Virus record (IMG/VR): IMGVR_UViG_638341082_000010
Direction: 5' to 3' (one strand)
Length of the DNA stretch: 35,031 nucleotides
Source of the DNA: a virus
Taxonomy: Duplodnaviria; Heunggongvirae; Uroviricota; Caudoviricetes
Of the stretch, positions 5,652 to 12,749 are shown one piece after another; the first letter of the stretch is position 1; every line of letters starts with the position of its first letter. A program made the position numbers and the translations under genes. The notes under the pieces were generated by a model that saw nothing but the letters and a program-made list of their open reading frames with translations, was not told where the DNA came from and did no database searches.

Positions 5652-8474
5652 ATGACGACAGAGTACATCAGGGACTGGCAACAACCGCGCCACGCAGTGG
5701 GGCGTGAAGGAACGGGGATCCCCGCACCTGAATCCGCGCTTTCCTCCTGGCTGGATGCCTACCGGGCAGAGAACGAGCGCCGACAGGAAAAGGCTGATGC
5801 GGCGTTCTCCGCCACGCCGCTGGGCAACCTGATTAATAAAAGCCTGGATGCACAGGAAAAACAGGACAAAACTATCACACTGGCAGGAGACGTCAGAAAA
5901 CAGGCACGCGGCGCGGTGGATGAAGCCATGGCCTCGCTGCGCCTGCTGCCGTCCTATCTGCGCGATCCGCTTATTCGCCACCTCTCCTTCCTGCGCAAAA
6001 AACAGGAAGCCGATCGCCGGAAAGGCAAAAAGAGCTGGCAGGCGGAACGCTATGCACGCGGAACCCTGCGCAAAATATTCGAACGTCTGGATCGCACTGA
6101 CGGACGCTGGCTGACACCGGGTTATCGCTCCCTTGCCGGACGCGAACGCCTGGACGATTTGCTTTACCTGCCGCAGCTCAACAAACACCAGATACAGACG
6201 CTGGCCACCATGACGGCGGCGATGTTCAGCAGCACCTTCGAAAAACTCTGCGATGGCTTTGGCGCGACCGATGGCGAACTGACCATGGATGTAACGCTGA
6301 AGACGTATCAGATGCTGGCCCGCATGGCGTTACACCTGCACATCATGCCTCCACATTATGACGCACTGACAACAGATAAAGACCGGAGGAACGAACCGGA
6401 CACGGAGCTGCTGCCGGGCGCAGTCCTTCGCCTGACCTGTGCGGAATGGTGGAAACGCAAACTGTGGCTGTTACGTTGCGAGTGGAGAGAAGAACAACTC
6501 CGCGCCGCCTGTCTGGTTTCCAGAAAAACATCGCCCTATCTGAGCCAGGGCGCATTAAGCGAGTTTCGCGCACAGCGCGAGAAAACACGCGATTTCCTGA
6601 AAAGTTTCATGCTGGAAAATGAAGACGGGTTCACGATTGATCTCGAGACGGTGTATTACGCGGGAGTAAGTAACCCGGTTCACCGTAAGGCAGAAATGAT
6701 GACCACCATGAAGGGGCTGGAACTTCTGGCCGAAGCCCGTGGCGACAGAGCGGTGTTTCTGACTGTCACCTGCCCGTCAAAATACCACGCAACAACGGAG
6801 AACGGTCATCCGAATCCCAAATGGAACGGGGCCACCATGCGTGACTCCAGCGATTACCTGGTTAACACGTTTTTTGCGGCGGTCCGCAAAAAACTGAACC
6901 GCGACGGTCTTCGCTGGTATGGCATCCGCACGGTGGAGCCTCACCATGACGGCACTGTGCACTGGCATATGATGGTCTTTGCACATCCGGACGAGATTGA
7001 AACCATCGTGTCCCACGTCTGCGATATTGCCATTCAGGAAGACCGCCACGAGCTGGGCGATGACATAACTCCGCGTTTTAAAGCGGAGTACGTCGACGGC
7101 TCAAAAGGCACGCCAACCAGCTACATCGCCACCTACATCGGAAAGAACCTGGACAGCCGCGCCGTGGATGGTATCGACCCGAAAACGGGCAAGCCACGCG
7201 TTGACCACGAAACCGGAAAATCAATGGCCGAGAGCGTGGAGCGCGCCATCGGCTGGGCGCGCCTTCACCGGGTCCGCCAGTTCCAGTTCTTTGGCATCCC
7301 CTCCCGTCAGGTGTGGCGTGAACTGCGCCGCCTTGCCAGCCAGATGGCACGCAACCCGGAAGGCCCGCAACAGCTGAAGGATGACGCAATGGATGCAGTG
7401 CTCGCTGCCGCTGATGCCGGGTGTTTTGCCTCCTACATTGAAAAACAGGGCGGCGTACTTGTTCCACGCAAAGACTACCTGATTCGCACCGCCTACGACC
7501 TCGCAGATGAGCTGAACGATTACGGCGAACAGAGCGTACAGATTTACGGGATCTGGTCACCACTCATCGGGGAGTCTTCCCGTGTGTGCACACATCCGGA
7601 TAACTGGAAGCTGGTAAGACGTAAACCGGAAGCGGAAGACAGCGCCCGCGAAAATGGTTTTGACCTTCAGGGCGGCCCTGCCGCCCCTTGGACTCGTGGC
7701 AATAACTGTCCCCGTGTACAGGAAACGGACAACAACGGGACAGAACAGCCGGAAGAACGGCCAGCACCGTGGCCGCAGCTCCCTGACGGCGTTGAAGTGA
7801 ACGAATGGATGCGCTCACTGAAACGGCACGAACGCCGGGCGCTGATGCGTTCGCTGCGTGACAAGCAGGCAAAAAACAGCAGTGATGAAATGCAGAACTG
7901 GACACAGAGCCGCAAACAGCCACGGCCTTTGCCTGATAACCACGAATTACTCGCTAAAGAATGGCGGGAATCTGCCGAATCTCTCGGCCTGCATATCGGT
8001 GAACAGCAGATGCAGCACCTGTTACGGGGCGGCAGCCTGTACGTTGACGGCAGCATCATTGCACCACAGGGATTTGAAATTGTACGCAAACCGGATACCC
8101 GCCCGGACAGCCGAATCACGCAGCTCTGGCAGCACCTGAGCCGTAATCACGGCGTAAGCAGCACGGAGATCCGCCATAACCCGGTCGCCAGCTATCTGGA
8201 ACAGCTGGGGGCATCAGACCCCGAAGCCGCCGCACGTCTGGCATCCACACTTCAGCAGGACCAGAACACCATGAAAACCCCCGTTACCGTGCTTTCTGAC
8301 ATGCTGCGCGCCATTCGTGACGCAGAGCACGCACAGAGAATCAGTGAAACAACTGAACGCGCCCGCCGCAAAGCAGACCTGCTGCGGGGTGGCCTGACCA
8401 GTAGAAACAAAAAACAGACAGAAACGGGATTCACAAATCCCGTAAATGAGCAAAAAACGCGCCGCGATATATGA
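5652..8474 (+). CDS. A: Rolling-circle replication initiation endonuclease (P2 gpA family) with a long C-terminal extension
   Basis: 940 aa; HUH-type motif VHWHMMVF and paired catalytic tyrosines YIATYIGKN in the central domain. Confidence 0.9.
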   Translation: MTTEYIRDWQQPRHAVGREGTGIPAPESALSSWLDAYRAENERRQEKADAAFSATPLGNLINKSLDAQEKQDKTITLAGDVRKQARGAVDEAMASLRLLPSYLRDPLIRHLSFLRKKQEADRRKGKKSWQAERYARGTLRKIFERLDRTDGRWLTPGYRSLAGRERLDDLLYLPQLNKHQIQTLATMTAAMFSSTFEKLCDGFGATDGELTMDVTLKTYQMLARMALHLHIMPPHYDALTTDKDRRNEPDTELLPGAVLRLTCAEWWKRKLWLLRCEWREEQLRAACLVSRKTSPYLSQGALSEFRAQREKTRDFLKSFMLENEDGFTIDLETVYYAGVSNPVHRKAEMMTTMKGLELLAEARGDRAVFLTVTCPSKYHATTENGHPNPKWNGATMRDSSDYLVNTFFAAVRKKLNRDGLRWYGIRTVEPHHDGTVHWHMMVFAHPDEIETIVSHVCDIAIQEDRHELGDDITPRFKAEYVDGSKGTPTSYIATYIGKNLDSRAVDGIDPKTGKPRVDHETGKSMAESVERAIGWARLHRVRQFQFFGIPSRQVWRELRRLASQMARNPEGPQQLKDDAMDAVLAAADAGCFASYIEKQGGVLVPRKDYLIRTAYDLADELNDYGEQSVQIYGIWSPLIGESSRVCTHPDNWKLVRRKPEAEDSARENGFDLQGGPAAPWTRGNNCPRVQETDNNGTEQPEERPAPWPQLPDGVEVNEWMRSLKRHERRALMRSLRDKQAKNSSDEMQNWTQSRKQPRPLPDNHELLAKEWRESAESLGLHIGEQQMQHLLRGGSLYVDGSIIAPQGFEIVRKPDTRPDSRITQLWQHLSRNHGVSSTEIRHNPVASYLEQLGASDPEAAARLASTLQQDQNTMKTPVTVLSDMLRAIRDAEHAQRISETTERARRKADLLRGGLTSRNKKQTETGFTNPVNEQKTRRDI

Positions 8475-8519
8475 AGCGCGCACAAAACAGGCGAAAACGG
8501 GATTTAAAAATCCCGTAAA
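8422..8519. repeat. Two copies of a 20-bp palindrome (ACGGGATT-N4-AATCCCGT and ACGGGATTT-AA-AAATCCCGT) inside a roughly 40-bp direct repeat
   Basis: Read from sequence; first copy lies in the last codons of A, second about 35 bp upstream of the parM start. Confidence 0.5.
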
Positions 8520-8550
8520 CGATTAATTAATCAACATAAGGAAAAGCGAC

Positions 8551-9510
8551 ATGAAAATTTGTATCGACGACGGCTCCACCAACATCAAGCTGGCATGGAC
8601 TGAGAACGGCGAACGCCGCAACGCCATCAGCCCGAACAGCTTCAAGTCGGAATGGTCTGCGCCGTTCGGTGGCACGCAGCCCGCGAACTACATGCTTGAT
8701 GGCGTGCGCTATGGTTTTGATCCGGTCAGCGATCGCTTTGTCCAGACGACCGACACGCAATACCAGTACAGCGATGTGAATGTAATCGCCATTCACCACG
8801 CGCTGGTCAAATCAGGCATCACACCACAGGAAGTGGATGTGGTTGTTACCCTGCCACTGAGCGAGTATTTCGACACAAACGCACAGCCGGACATGGCCAA
8901 CATCAACCGCAAAAAAGCGAACGTTATGCGCCCGGTGGAGTACCAGAACGGCGAAGCATTCACTATCCGTAACGTGCGGGTTATGCCTGAATCCATTCCG
9001 GCTGGCTTTAAAGCACTGGCTGACATGAGTCCGTTTGAATCCCTGCTGATTGTGGATTTAGGCGGAACCACGCTGGATGTGGCAAAGGTTCAGGGGCAAC
9101 TGGCAGGTATCAGCCAGGTGTTTTGCGATCCACACGTAGGCGTCTCCCTGATGGCCGGTGCCGTGCTGTCGGTGATGGCCGCTAACGGTATGCGTACCAG
9201 TCACCACATCGCCAATACCATTATCGAACATCGCCATGATGAAGCCTGGTTGCGCCAACACATCCACAATGACGCGCATTACGCCAGCCTGATGGCGGTT
9301 ATTCGTGAAAAGGAAGAAACACTGAAACAACGCGTGATCCGCGCGCTGGCGGGTTTTTCGGGTTACGGGCGGGTGATGGTTGTCGGTGGCGGGGCGGAGA
9401 TTGTGGCACCCGCTATCCGCGAAGCCTGCGGAGTTAATGCGACTTTCATCGCGGACGGGGTGCCACAGTTTGCTCTGGTTAATGGGCTGTACGCAATGGA
9501 CAAGGAGTAA
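8551..9510 (+). CDS. parM: Actin-like plasmid segregation ATPase ParM/StbA
   Basis: 319 aa; N-terminus MKICIDDGSTNIKLAW and internal VMPESIPAG, DLGGTTLD, VMVVGGGAE, LVNGLY match the R1 ParM/StbA pattern. Confidence 0.85.
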   Translation: MKICIDDGSTNIKLAWTENGERRNAISPNSFKSEWSAPFGGTQPANYMLDGVRYGFDPVSDRFVQTTDTQYQYSDVNVIAIHHALVKSGITPQEVDVVVTLPLSEYFDTNAQPDMANINRKKANVMRPVEYQNGEAFTIRNVRVMPESIPAGFKALADMSPFESLLIVDLGGTTLDVAKVQGQLAGISQVFCDPHVGVSLMAGAVLSVMAANGMRTSHHIANTIIEHRHDEAWLRQHIHNDAHYASLMAVIREKEETLKQRVIRALAGFSGYGRVMVVGGGAEIVAPAIREACGVNATFIADGVPQFALVNGLYAMDKE

Positions 9511-9514
9511 ACCA

Positions 9515-9829
9515 ATGACGACACCAACCAGACGGATAAGTTTCTATCTGAAGCCAGTCGCCGTCAATAGTGAACGGGAGGCGTGTAATTACCTCGACAG
9601 CCTGCCAGCCTCTGAACGCAGCCGCGCGCAACGCGCGGCCTTTCTGGCCGGGCTGGCACTCATAAAACGCGATCCTGCATTTGCCTATTGGTTGGCCGAA
9701 TGGCCGGAAGAAGGAGCTGCGCCAGCCAAGAATAATATTCAGAGTAAATATGCCAGCACACCTGCCACCGGAAGCAATCACAGCACTAGCGAGATAAGAA
9801 AGAACATTCAGTCATTTTTCCCAGAGTGA
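9515..9829 (+). CDS. parR: ParR/StbB-like centromere-binding adaptor
   Basis: 104 aa from ATG after an AAGGAG RBS; N-terminus RRISFYLKP...LDSLPASERSRAQRAAFLAGLAL resembles R1 ParR. Confidence 0.75.
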   Translation: MTTPTRRISFYLKPVAVNSEREACNYLDSLPASERSRAQRAAFLAGLALIKRDPAFAYWLAEWPEEGAAPAKNNIQSKYASTPATGSNHSTSEIRKNIQSFFPE

Positions 9830-9848
9830 AAACAGGAGAGGAGCATCT

Positions 9849-10310
9849 ATGGCAACTATCCCCAAAAAATGGTTACAACGCAAAATTGCAGACCTTGAAT
9901 CGTGTCGTGAAGACATCCCGTTTGGCCTTGATGAAAACGATCACAATATGTTAATCGCACTGAAAATCGCACTCACATCGCTGGAAGCAGAGGCAGTTAT
10001 GTTCTGTATATCAGGACAAAATGTAGATTCAGAAGAACATGTATCAACCAGCAAAGCGGTTGTTGATGCCTGGGTTGAAGAATGGAATCAGGTTGACGGA
10101 AGTCCTGGCGAACCACTGTACAAAACTATGCCACTCTACTATCACGCTGCCTTGCCAGCGCCGGTAGTGCCGGAAGAAGCAACTCCGGAAAACGTAGAAA
10201 TGCTCTCTGGCTATGTTTCCACGTACAAATTAACCGATAGCGAGCGCGATATTGCTGCCGAAATATGGAACGCCTGCCGCGCCGCTATGCTTCATGGGAA
10301 AGGAGAGTGA
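9849..10310 (+). CDS. Hypothetical protein, lower-GC cargo
   Basis: 153-aa ORF with AGGAGAGGAG RBS; no recognisable motif. Confidence 0.55.
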   Translation: MATIPKKWLQRKIADLESCREDIPFGLDENDHNMLIALKIALTSLEAEAVMFCISGQNVDSEEHVSTSKAVVDAWVEEWNQVDGSPGEPLYKTMPLYYHAALPAPVVPEEATPENVEMLSGYVSTYKLTDSERDIAAEIWNACRAAMLHGKGE

Positions 10311-10311
10311 T

Positions 10312-10575
10312 ATGGCAACTTTAACAAAAAAAGAACGGGCATGGTTGAACGAATTACAGGACGTTCTTGATCGCTGCCCATCACCGAAAAAAATTGGTTT
10401 TTACACCATTGGCGATAAAAGCATTTACCTGTATGACCTGCGCCGCATGGATGAAATCATGGAGGCTCTTGATAATCGTTCGTCAATGGATTGGTGTGTT
10501 GCTGTCCATGATATGAATGCAGGGTTTGATGAAAAGATTTTGTTCCCCTCATCAGTTGAAAGCACAGCAGGATAA
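10312..10575 (+). CDS. Hypothetical protein, lower-GC cargo, coupled to the previous gene
   Basis: 87 aa from ATG at 10312 with AGGAGAG RBS, 1 bp after the upstream stop. Confidence 0.5.
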   Translation: MATLTKKERAWLNELQDVLDRCPSPKKIGFYTIGDKSIYLYDLRRMDEIMEALDNRSSMDWCVAVHDMNAGFDEKILFPSSVESTAG

Positions 10576-10610
10576 GGACCCAGCAAATATACACAACCTA
10601 TAAAACACTA

Positions 10611-10633
10611 AAGCGCCTCAGGGGCGCTTTTTG
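10611..10633 (+). terminator. Intrinsic terminator (AGCGCC-TCAG-GGCGCT then T5)
   Basis: GC hairpin plus T-run about 35 bp after the stop at 10575. Confidence 0.6.
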
Positions 10634-10635
10634 TT

Positions 10636-10662
10636 TGCACAAAAGTGCACAAATTTGCACAA
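10636..10662. repeat. Three direct TGCACAA repeats at exact 10-bp spacing
   Basis: Read from sequence: TGCACAAAAG TGCACAAATT TGCACAATTT. Confidence 0.5.
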
Positions 10663-10758
10663 TTTTTTTGAACGACTTTTTACCCTTCCGGCCCGCATGG
10701 CGGCTGGATCCGTCAAGGATCCGTGCGTGCACAAAAAAACGCGTTTTTTCTGCGCGCA

Positions 10759-10780
10759 GGTGACGGGGGAACAGCCCGCG
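10759..10780. other. Candidate cos-like GC-rich segment (GGTGACGGGGGAACAGCC)
   Basis: Partial resemblance to the recalled P2/186 19-nt cohesive-end sequences; position between the replication-side genes and Q matches the prophage map. Confidence 0.25.
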
Positions 10781-11035
10781 TTTCAGGGGGGTAAATAGCA
10801 TTCCCTGAATGATGTCGCAGAGACACAACAGAATGGCTGTATTTCTCATGCTGAGCGTGAAAAAGACGTGAGGGCTTTTGATTTGATGGGATGACAGATA
10901 GGGCTGTCAAAATCGCACTGAGGCAGTGAGAACATGCTGTCAGCGCGATGGGATTGCGTAAGAGTCCGGCAGTCGATGATGGCAATAAGTTGGAAGATGT
11001 CGTGAAATTATCTGATTGATACAGGAGCTGGAGAG

Positions 11036-11060
11036 TCGGGGCATAAATTTTTTATGCCCC
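11036..11060. promoter_or_regulatory. Perfect palindrome GGGGCATAAA-TTT-TTTATGCCCC about 100 bp upstream of the cargo gene
   Basis: 10-bp arms read from sequence; no flanking U-tract, so operator-like rather than terminator. Confidence 0.4.
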
Positions 11061-11162
11061 GGCGAAGCAGCAGACAAGCGAAGCGCGTCAGCGATACGGC
11101 ACCTTGCCGACCATACTTCATAAGTGCAAAATACGAGCAAAGAAATCAATGGAGGCTGTCTT

Positions 11163-11687
11163 ATGGTCATTAATTACAAGCAGTTAAGAGAAAAACGGGA
11201 GCAGGTAAAGGAGAGCTTTCGCCGCAATGAAGATCTGACCCCGCTTGTACGCCTTGCCCAGGGCATTGTTGATGCTTATGAAATCTCGCTGGAGCTGCCA
11301 TCACAGACCTGGACAGATAGCGACGGTAATCGCCAGCATTACGTTTCATGCGGACTGGAAGCAGCCGAAGGATTTCGCAGAATGCCTTTATCTCAGATCC
11401 CTGCCGCTACCCCCAAAGCACGGGGCTGCAATGATGAGCGAAAACTGACTTTTAGTATTGAAACGGTGGTTGACGACACACCTGGCGAAGTCGCGTTCGT
11501 GCACACTCCTGTTTCGATCGCAATGTATAACGATGAAATACAGGTTCGCGTTAATAATAATATCGTGCCACTTAAAGAAGGTAATTCACCATACACCACC
11601 GTTTGTGAAGCCATTCAATATTACGTTCTCTCTGAAATTGATAATCTCAAGCCTGACGGCACCCAGAAAATGGTTCAACTCTGGTAA
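11163..11687 (+). CDS. Hypothetical cargo protein between the cos region and the portal gene
   Basis: 174 aa from ATG with GGAGG RBS; lower GC than backbone; convergent with Q. Confidence 0.5.
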   Translation: MVINYKQLREKREQVKESFRRNEDLTPLVRLAQGIVDAYEISLELPSQTWTDSDGNRQHYVSCGLEAAEGFRRMPLSQIPAATPKARGCNDERKLTFSIETVVDDTPGEVAFVHTPVSIAMYNDEIQVRVNNNIVPLKEGNSPYTTVCEAIQYYVLSEIDNLKPDGTQKMVQLW

Positions 11688-11693
11688 AAAGGA

Positions 11694-11719
11694 CAGCCCC
11701 AATCACGGGGCTGTTTTTT
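11694..11719 (+). terminator. Intrinsic terminator hairpin (CAGCCCC-AATCA-CGGGGCTG then T6) overlapping the 3' end of Q
   Basis: GC stem plus T6 directly after the 11687 stop. Confidence 0.6.
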
Positions 11720-12749
11720 CATCAAGAAGAGCATAAGAATTAAAACGGATCACCTCTTCGCCAAGCCAGTCATTGATGTGCTTCATGGCCTCCATAACGG
11801 GCATCAGCTCGTTAATTGCATAAACCCGCGCGGCCTTCTCCACATCACCAAACGCACTTTTTTCGCCCGGCATCGCCCCCATCAGTTGCGGTGGAACACG
11901 GTGCGCAGCCAGCACATCATCACGGGATGCCGCCTTAACATTCATGAACTCATCTTTTGCGGTGATCTGCTGGAACGGCAAAATTTGCACCCCCTCTTTG
12001 CCCCCGTTGGGCGCATGGATGAGCACGTTTTTAAACGCACCACCACCACGCGCACCCTGTAACGTTTCTTTCAGGGAGTCCATGCTTTCGCGGTTTACCT
12101 GCGCTGCACCGATATAGATGATGCACCCGGCGTGGGATCCATTGTCGTAATACAGTTTTCTGAACATGTCCGCCGAATGAGACAGGCTGGCCGAGAGTAA
12201 TGCGCCAAGATATTCCGGCATGCCGTAAATTTCCTGGTTAATGTCCGGATTCATCAGGTGGCACACTTTGCCAGGGCGAAACTGAAACGCATCCTTGCCA
12301 TCCTGCACATACCACCATGATTCAAGATCGCTTCCGCGTCGCATGTATTTCGCCAGGGCGTGCCGTAATTTAAGCGGTTCGCCGAGCATATTGCTTCGAA
12401 GCTCAAGAAATGCGTTACCGAACACAAACCAGTCCAGCGCCAGCGCCGAGAAATCCTGCCGGGAAAGCAGCGGGTGCGGAATATAGCAACCGAGCAATAC
12501 ATTGCGCTTAAAGTAAAGCGCAGACTGATGCCAGGACGTTTGCCGGGCAGCTCTTGCCAGACCGTACCAGTCCACCGGGGTTTCATACCACCGCCCGTTA
12601 TCAGCACAGTACATATTGTCCAGCAAATCATGCCCGGTCAGGCGATAAGGACCATCAAATGTGAATGCACTGAGCGACGATTCTTTCCTGAGCGCATCAG
12701 CGAGATCAATGCGTGAACTCATGCGCACTTTTTTATTTTTTCTGCTCAT
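11703..12749 (-). CDS. Q: Portal protein (P2 gpQ family)
   Basis: 348 aa; divergent from O and directly downstream of P with ATGA overlap, as in P2. Confidence 0.9.
   Translation of the reverse strand: MSRKNKKVRMSSRIDLADALRKESSLSAFTFDGPYRLTGHDLLDNMYCADNGRWYETPVDWYGLARAARQTSWHQSALYFKRNVLLGCYIPHPLLSRQDFSALALDWFVFGNAFLELRSNMLGEPLKLRHALAKYMRRGSDLESWWYVQDGKDAFQFRPGKVCHLMNPDINQEIYGMPEYLGALLSASLSHSADMFRKLYYDNGSHAGCIIYIGAAQVNRESMDSLKETLQGARGGGAFKNVLIHAPNGGKEGVQILPFQQITAKDEFMNVKAASRDDVLAAHRVPPQLMGAMPGEKSAFGDVEKAARVYAINELMPVMEAMKHINDWLGEEVIRFNSYALLDEKTAP

Follow-up and report, generated by a model that had tools for sequence, protein, structure and literature searches.

In P2-like phages the interval between gpA and gpQ, that is between gpA and the portal gene, is the main hotspot for cargo and defence genes (PMC13586616). 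Among lambdoid phages, Ea22 proteins are mosaic, with acidic C-terminal domains and a K/RGE end; they are made very early and favour lysogeny and host survival (PMC7093339, PMC10834534). The proteins of this lambdoid region that have been studied (Ea22, Orf60a/61/63 and Ea8.5) are made very early and, through host partners, affect both host survival and the choice between lysis and lysogeny (PMC7093339 among other sources). Here we describe a segment at positions 9849-10575 of IMG/VR record IMGVR_UViG_638341082_000010, whose 35,031 nucleotides (nt) we refer to as the window. The window is a P88-like (Xuanwuvirus) phage of the P2 family, and its closest chromosomal relatives are integrated beside yecA. 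The segment holds two open reading frames (ORFs), ORF1 and ORF2, which an earlier reading of the sequence (the original prediction) had placed in the gpA-portal hotspot, where they indeed lie (PMC13586616). We find that both genes belong to existing uncharacterised families in a known hotspot, and that the transfer of lambdoid material into a P2 hotspot is mildly interesting.

The cargo slot and the origin of the segment

Comparing the window with four relatives, PhiR44_2, P88, 520873 and a P88-like ST131 prophage, we observed that homology stops inside parR (9567-9705) and that backbone homology resumes at 10611-10636, exactly at the intrinsic terminator behind ORF2. Between these points the cargo differs. 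P88 carries a ClpX-zinc-finger protein and small ORFs; PhiR44_2 (L001 1991-3393) carries a ClpX C4 zinc-finger protein, a protein of 104 amino acids (aa) with an Ead-like N-terminus and an XF1762 protein, with a copy of ORF2 directly after them; other P88-like slots contain either a DUF4760 protein together with a 280-aa protein on the opposite strand or a lone 89-aa ORF. The XF1762-family protein resembles the Mom DNA-modification family weakly, below the threshold (E 1e-4). Of 5426 complete E. coli genomes, 1279 have the parMR backbone (chromosomal in 1441 of 1443 places), and only 28 of these carry the present cargo behind parR. The slot between parR and the terminator is a true swap site, and the cargo turnover that the original prediction expected among related prophages is what this comparison revealed.

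The likely source of the segment is apparent from window positions 9964-10578 (ORF1 codon 39 to the ORF2 stop), which are 98.9% identical at the nucleotide level to the lambdoid phage vB_EcoS-689R5. There, a gene for an 'Ea22 protein' and an 87-aa gene are adjacent, amid a run of similar small genes. Judged by sequence, 9849-10575 is a mosaic piece of the accessory array of the lambdoid early-left region (the 'ea' or exo-xis region). Conserved gene boundaries are typical of such arrays. The gpA-portal hotspot of P2 thus appears to admit lambdoid early accessory fragments besides defence systems, with conserved gene junctions intact; since it takes more than defence, unknown cargo found there is not defence by default.

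The features of the locus are as follows.

5652-8474: gpA, 940 aa, with a Phage_GPA domain
8551-9510: parM, encoding ParM (PF06406/PF21523, E 1e-82)
9515-9829: parR, encoding a ParR-type Plasmid_stab_B protein (E 4e-25)
9834..9843, + strand: Shine-Dalgarno-like AGGAGAGGAG, read from the sequence, 5 nt after the parR stop and 5 nt before the ORF1 ATG
9849..10310, + strand: ORF1, ATG start, 153 aa, acidic, assigned to the EaA/Ea22 class of lambdoid mosaic proteins
10312..10575, + strand: ORF2, ATG start, 87 aa, phrog_1714 member, standalone alpha/beta protein
10610..10637, + strand: intrinsic terminator, ending the transcription unit and forming the right edge of the variable slot
11163-11687, + strand: 174-aa ORF, beyond the terminator and a conserved non-coding stretch
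after the 174-aa ORF, - strand: portal and terminase genes

ORF1 and ORF2 are oriented like gpA-parMR and closely packed behind them, ORF1 starting 19 nt after the parR stop at 9829. The ORF1 stop codon TGA (10308-10310) and the ORF2 ATG are separated by 1 nt, and AAGGAG at 10300-10305, within the 3' end of ORF1, precedes ORF2. This junction fits translational coupling as the original prediction had it, coupling itself being read from the arrangement of the sequence. The ORF list also holds a longer version of ORF2 that starts with TTG at 10252; all homologues begin at the methionine of MATLTKKE. The original description of an acidic 153-aa and an 87-aa ORF, AT-richer than the backbone and followed by a clean intrinsic terminator, proved accurate. 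GC is 0.472 for ORF1 and 0.420 for ORF2 (0.43 and 0.40 at third codon positions), against 0.574 for gpA, 0.555 for parM and 0.530 for the whole window. The isoelectric points (pI) are 4.56 for ORF1, which has 26 aspartate and glutamate against 12 lysine and arginine residues, and 4.83 for ORF2. In a terminator scan, the stem spans 9 bp at 10610-10630 with five G-C pairs and is followed by the T-run TTTTTGTTT; the RNA fold has an energy of -25.2 kcal/mol (z = -4.2 against shuffled sequences), and only weak terminator-like sites were found between gpA and 10610. A crude consensus scan found no sigma-70-like promoter on the + strand between 8300 and 11100.

Several further observations concern the surroundings. 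The window carries a complete ParM/ParR actin-type partition cassette (8551-9829) in an integrating prophage of the P2 family. Upstream of it is a 42-nt direct repeat in two copies (8408-8449 and 8481-8522, 83% identical), each with the 20-nt palindrome ACGGGATTnAnAAATCCCGT; one copy is at the 3' end of gpA, and the second falls within the 76 nt that separate gpA from parM. These repeats are candidates for a parC-like ParR binding site or a promoter region, and they matter for the question of whether the lysogen can express parMR-ORF1-ORF2. In gpA itself the Phage_GPA domain spans residues 179-503 of 940, and approximately 440 C-terminal residues have no domain match. Just 3' of the terminator are repeated TTTGCACAA / TGCACAAAA motifs at 10634-10662 and 10728-10736, with an overlapping palindrome at 10641-10666. 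A regulatory or packaging (cos-region) function is conceivable for them; a search of the window for a P2-type cos sequence was negative. The non-coding stretch 10636-11095 is conserved at 91-97% across Xuanwuvirus genomes. Just ahead of the portal gene is a second variable slot (11095-11728), which holds the 174-aa ORF (GC 0.47). This ORF matches phrog_5091 (E 1.5e-67), with no match in Pfam, NCBIfam or PADLOC; it is present in PhiR44_2 and the ST131 prophage and missing from P88 and 520873, where homology skips from 11095 to 11728.

ORF1 and ORF2 as separate genes

Searches of Pfam, NCBIfam and PADLOC (Pfam and PADLOC to E 1) returned no match for ORF1 or ORF2, and PDB sequence searches, with single sequences and with an ORF2 profile, returned nothing meaningful. 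The two-gene unknown of the original prediction does have recognised kin: ORF1 matches phrog_5117 (E 6e-27) and phrog_660 (E 8e-17), ORF2 matches phrog_1714, and their relatives are annotated as Ea22, EaA, ead/Ea22-like or DUF551 proteins of lambdoid phages. Both are genuine genes and not chance ORFs, since exact copies of the ORF1 protein occur on 444 contigs and of the ORF2 protein on at least 1000, and the ratio of nonsynonymous to synonymous substitution rates (dN/dS) of ORF2 is 0.20-0.26 where dS is unsaturated.

We next consider whether the two genes form a pair, based on 79 IMG/VR loci in which ORF2 is 99-100% identical. The gene upstream of ORF2 is of the ORF1 type in 26 loci, encodes a 45-72-aa membrane protein in another 26, is XF1762/Mom-like in 16 and is some other Ea22-like gene ending in ..KGE in approximately 11, so that ORF2 copies follow at least four unrelated kinds of gene. 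Other P2-like prophages, and virulent phages as well, have ORF2 homologues but no ORF1. The 1-nt junction between the upstream stop codon and the ORF2 ATG is kept in 79 of 79 loci while the partners change; therefore it is the junction, including the ribosome-binding site of ORF2, that is conserved, and not the partner. ORF1 and ORF2 are independent genes, not a functional two-gene system, and the idea of a compact two-gene module has to be given up. In Chi-like phages and in Av-05, the gene that precedes the ORF2 homologue (gp31 and gp128, respectively) was considered as a relative of ORF1 or XF1762 and rejected.

These counts also bear on a toxin-antitoxin pair, or an add-on to ParMR maintenance, with the acidic ORF1 as antitoxin and ORF2 as toxin or with the roles exchanged. 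Two small, closely coupled genes right behind parMR, the first of them acidic, are what such a system would look like, but approximately 98% of genomes with the parMR backbone carry other cargo, and the low proportion of loci with an ORF1-type gene upstream means that obligate linkage fails. Moreover, near-identical ORF2 stands alone or behind unrelated genes, which would be intolerable for a toxin, and no toxin or antitoxin was matched in Pfam, NCBIfam or PADLOC. We regard this explanation as highly improbable.

ORF1 has 444 homologues, and separate relatives match separate parts of the protein, which we divide into three modules.

9849..9963, + strand: N-terminal module (aa 1-38), a putative EaA-type helical hairpin, assigned from similarity to the EaA N-terminus
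9964..10153, + strand: central module (approximately aa 39-102), its edges set by the conserved linkers ..SLEAEAV.. and ..APVVP..
10154..10310, + strand: C-terminal module and tail WNACRAAMLHGKGE, the tail also holding the ribosome-binding site of ORF2

Residues 1-73 of ORF1 are 48% identical (BLASTP, E 4e-18) to the N-terminus of ST64T gp09, which is EaA, a DUF550 protein, and tblastn matches the N-terminal module to EaA of P22-like phages and to N15 gp44/45; nucleotide homology with lambdoid relatives starts only at 9964/9976. Residues 39-99 are 92% identical to an exo-xis-region ORF in 57 Shiga toxin (Stx)-converting phages, and residues 45-153 are 98% identical to the C-terminal two-thirds of P0129, a protein with an Ead_Ea22 domain. 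Other relatives carry an appended DUF551 domain, and three (P0139, P0225 and P0226) have alternative modules in place of the C-terminal module of ORF1. In E. coli genomes, homology breakpoints fall at cassette nt 116/128, 306 and 451/460 and coincide with the short conserved linkers ..SLEAEAV.., ..APVVP.. and ..NACRAAML.GKGE; ORF1 itself ends in ...HGKGE. By this sequence evidence ORF1 is a member of the wider EaA/Ea22 mosaic class and not an Ea22 orthologue, and it illustrates cleanly how that class exchanges modules at short conserved linkers. Orthology with lambda Ea22 was considered and rejected, BLASTP and hhalign showing no similarity and the PF13935 signature being absent.

Of the checks that the original prediction had called for, remote homology searches revealed phrog, EaA and Ea22 kinship, and structure prediction gave a confident model for ORF2 with no structural match. 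For ORF1, the AF2 (AlphaFold2) model is poor (predicted local distance difference test, pLDDT, 57), with helices at residues 6-22, 29-46, 66-80 and 130-149 and the remainder disordered, and it was too poor for a fold search.

Two further loci illustrate variation around ORF1. E. coli FORC_069 (L088 12450-12920), among the closest chromosomal relatives, encodes a 156-aa variant in which PVV is duplicated in the proline-rich linker (..APVVPVVPEE..); the duplication suggests slippage or recombination at a linker that doubles as a module boundary. In the Stx2a phage Stx2_716 (L089 2393-3569), a gene with the ORF1 central module lies two ORFs downstream of an Ea22-type gene ending in IRIKGE and departs from ORF1 after the APVVP linker. 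It ends beside an opposite-strand gene for a 228-aa protein that is transposase-like by eye only.

ORF2 aligns with the phrog_1714 profile over its full length (residues 1-87 on positions 1-87 of 87, E 9.6e-51) and is 58-72% identical to ST64T gp10, Chivirus FSL SP-030 gp43 and Av-05 gp127. It contains all hallmarks of the family, namely W11, C-P at 22-23, the GFYTIGD hairpin, YD and a C-terminus of the form FPxxVxS(T/V)(A/C/S)G (in ORF2 and its close kin ..FPSxVESTAG); 130 of 147 members end in this glycine. Its close relatives, which are all annotated as 'hypothetical', come from Escherichia, Salmonella, Klebsiella, Edwardsiella, Pectobacterium and further Enterobacterales. When 1.84 billion representatives were searched with a profile, 209 family clusters (50% identity) emerged, nearly all of them standalone proteins of 80-90 aa whose length and motifs are kept down to approximately 30% identity. 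No informative domain fusion was found among these representatives; Pfam recognises nothing in the handful of longer proteins, which resemble products of read-through or of gene-calling errors. Members are present in lambdoid phages, P22-like ones included, in virulent phages (Chivirus, Avunavirus and Guernseyvirinae) and in phages of Vibrio, Aeromonas and Yersinia, and ORF2-only matches are found in more than 1000 of the 5426 complete E. coli genomes, including EDL933, UTI89 and ATCC 25922. ORF2 is a good target for characterisation: it is tiny and under purifying selection, its confident model resembles no known structure, it keeps a nearly invariant C-terminal glycine, and both temperate and virulent phages carry it.

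The conservation of ORF2 also tells against functionless recombination debris, in which the ORFs would be open only through recent acquisition. ORF1 is a patchwork with breakpoints at short conserved linkers and a mostly disordered model, as such debris might be. Against this stand the number of contigs with exact copies of both proteins, the low dN/dS of ORF2 and the retention of its length and motifs, and good ribosome-binding sites on both genes, and we find debris very hard to credit.

The neighbours of ORF2 homologues vary. In ST64T the homologue lies within the ea region, between abc/erf and xis/int. In Pectobacterium P2/186-like prophages (L103-L106 4001-4249) a homologue with 61% identity begins 3 nt after the gpA stop; it too lies within the gpA-portal interval, with no ORF1-like gene, and phrog_1714 has therefore entered the slot of P2-family phages at least twice. 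In Serratia phage Otaku the homologue begins 2 nt after a helicase gene and immediately precedes an adenine methylase gene, and other homologues adjoin N6/N4 and MT-A70 methyltransferase genes. Such positions, together with those near Mom-like XF1762 and ST64T erf/abc, would suit a small subunit or regulator that works with gpA, a helicase or methyltransferases, that is, an accessory of phage DNA replication, recombination or modification. We consider this improbable: the neighbouring enzymes vary by phage with no single conserved partner, ORF2 has no nucleic-acid-binding or enzymatic signature, and the family is missing from most P2-like and lambdoid phages and is therefore dispensable for replication.

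Proposed roles of the two proteins

We hypothesize, with confidence slightly above even, that ORF1 and ORF2 encode early accessory proteins, independent of each other, that target host or host-defence factors. A lambdoid early-left segment would have recombined into the gpA-portal cargo slot of a P88-like prophage, and both genes would probably be transcribed as the tail of a gpA-parM-parR early transcript that ends at 10610-10637, and would therefore act during infection or induction and not in the resting lysogen. By analogy with the Ea22 proteins that have been studied, ORF1 is most likely an acidic adaptor that forms oligomers, binding a host factor and altering how infection or induction turns out; its low-confidence model suggests an EaA-type N-terminal hairpin, an acidic, largely disordered centre and a C-terminal helix ending in ...KGE. 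ORF2 most likely targets, early in the lytic programme, a conserved protein of the host or of its defences, binding it and either neutralising or redirecting it, possibly via an exposed, invariant C-terminal ...S-T-A-G tail. We infer both the timing of expression and the host-directed or counter-defence role from context.

We favour this role because PADLOC gives no match, because the genes share the orientation and close spacing of gpA-parMR with no promoter-like site detected and because relatives occur in virulent phages; because ORF2 homologues lie behind replication genes and near methyltransferases, a Mom-like protein and abc1/abc2; and because the studied lambdoid proteins of the same region are very early modulators. 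Other considerations weigh against it. No homologue with a known mechanism backs any specific activity, and the neighbours of ORF2 elsewhere amount to loose guilt by association. Since ORF1 is dissimilar to lambda Ea22 and has no PF13935 signature, there is little basis for extending the Ea22 phenotype to it. The genes could be driven by a promoter that works in the lysogen, under ParR control or otherwise, perhaps at the palindromic repeats at 8408-8522. The locus is a defence hotspot, and of eight unknown cargo loci picked at random from P4 satellites, six turned out to be defensive (PMC13586616). Our literature search found no paper on exo-xis genes as anti-defence factors.

The hotspot is what makes defence worth weighing in its own right: one or both proteins, made in the lysogen, might abort or block other phages, as P2 tin and old do. 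Most P2 defence systems are held in the gpA-gpQ interval, and besides the P4 result just cited, machine learning flags 15-32% of unknown P2 proteins as antiviral (PMC13586616); the cargo turns over among P88-like prophages, and its low GC indicates recent acquisition. Nothing we found is specific to defence. PADLOC gave no match; the genes follow gpA-parMR in orientation, at close spacing, and no promoter-like site was found. ORF2 relatives occur in virulent phages and immediately behind replication genes, the ORF1-ORF2 pair is not conserved, and the studied members of the lambdoid early-left region, from which the segment appears to come, modulate the phage's own development. We therefore consider defence or superinfection exclusion unlikely. 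Of the novel defence, anti-defence or exclusion module that the original prediction proposed, an anti-defence or host-modulating role is the part that remains compatible with the data.

A more specific version of counter-defence is conceivable for ORF2, namely that it is a new small fold working through its nearly invariant exposed C-terminal tail (...S-(T/V)-(A/C/S)-Gly-COOH). The tail could serve as a decoy or active-site plug for a host enzyme that recognises Gly ends, such as ubiquitin-like conjugation of the Bil or CBASS-Cap2 type, or a protease. We regard this as a long shot; if true, ORF2 would be a broad-range phage counter-defence protein present in approximately one-fifth of E. coli genomes and in virulent phages. 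The C-terminal glycine had also led us to consider ORF2 as a MoaD/ThiS ubiquitin-like beta-grasp protein, which we rejected, finding no fold or profile similarity.

Comparison with tin and old, Ea22, EaA and phrog_1714

With P2 tin and old, ORF1 and ORF2 share the gpA-Q interval and its character as a cargo-turnover hotspot; they differ in showing no sequence, domain or architectural similarity to them. The lack of Pfam, NCBIfam and PADLOC matches means that neither protein matches an ABC ATPase, TOPRIM or other defence domain. tin and old have their own promoters, whereas ORF1 and ORF2 run in the gpA-parMR direction with no separate promoter detected, and they have relatives in virulent phages.

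The Ea22 proteins of lambda and Stx phages (PF13935 Ead_Ea22, IPR025153) resemble ORF1 in being acidic mosaics with swappable modules, a K/RGE end and an early-left origin. ORF1 differs in having neither the PF13935 signature (Pfam, E to 1) nor similarity to lambda Ea22, and in Stx phages its central module is a separate ORF two genes downstream of an Ea22-type gene. It also differs in location, lying between parR and the portal gene of a P2-like prophage and not in a lambdoid exo-xis region, although near-identical DNA occurs in lambdoid phages. The pro-lysogenic effect and tetramer formation are features of Ea22 that would extend to ORF1 only by analogy.

The similarity of ORF1 to EaA of P22-like phages (ST64T gp09) involves both ends of the protein: over 73 residues the N-terminal modules share 48% identity (MxTIxKxWLQ..IPFGLD..), and both proteins have the same kind of C-terminal tail (PAPVVP...NACRxAMLxG; ORF1 residues 103-150, BLASTP E 1e-5). 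Between these ends EaA has a central DUF550 domain of approximately 150 aa, in place of which ORF1 has an unrelated acidic module of 50-60 aa, and the two proteins accordingly differ in length (271 aa for gp09, 153 aa for ORF1). ORF2, in turn, is structurally no different from other phrog_1714 proteins and is unusual only in its setting, the cargo slot of a P2-family phage, a setting that recurs in the P2/186-like prophages of Pectobacterium.

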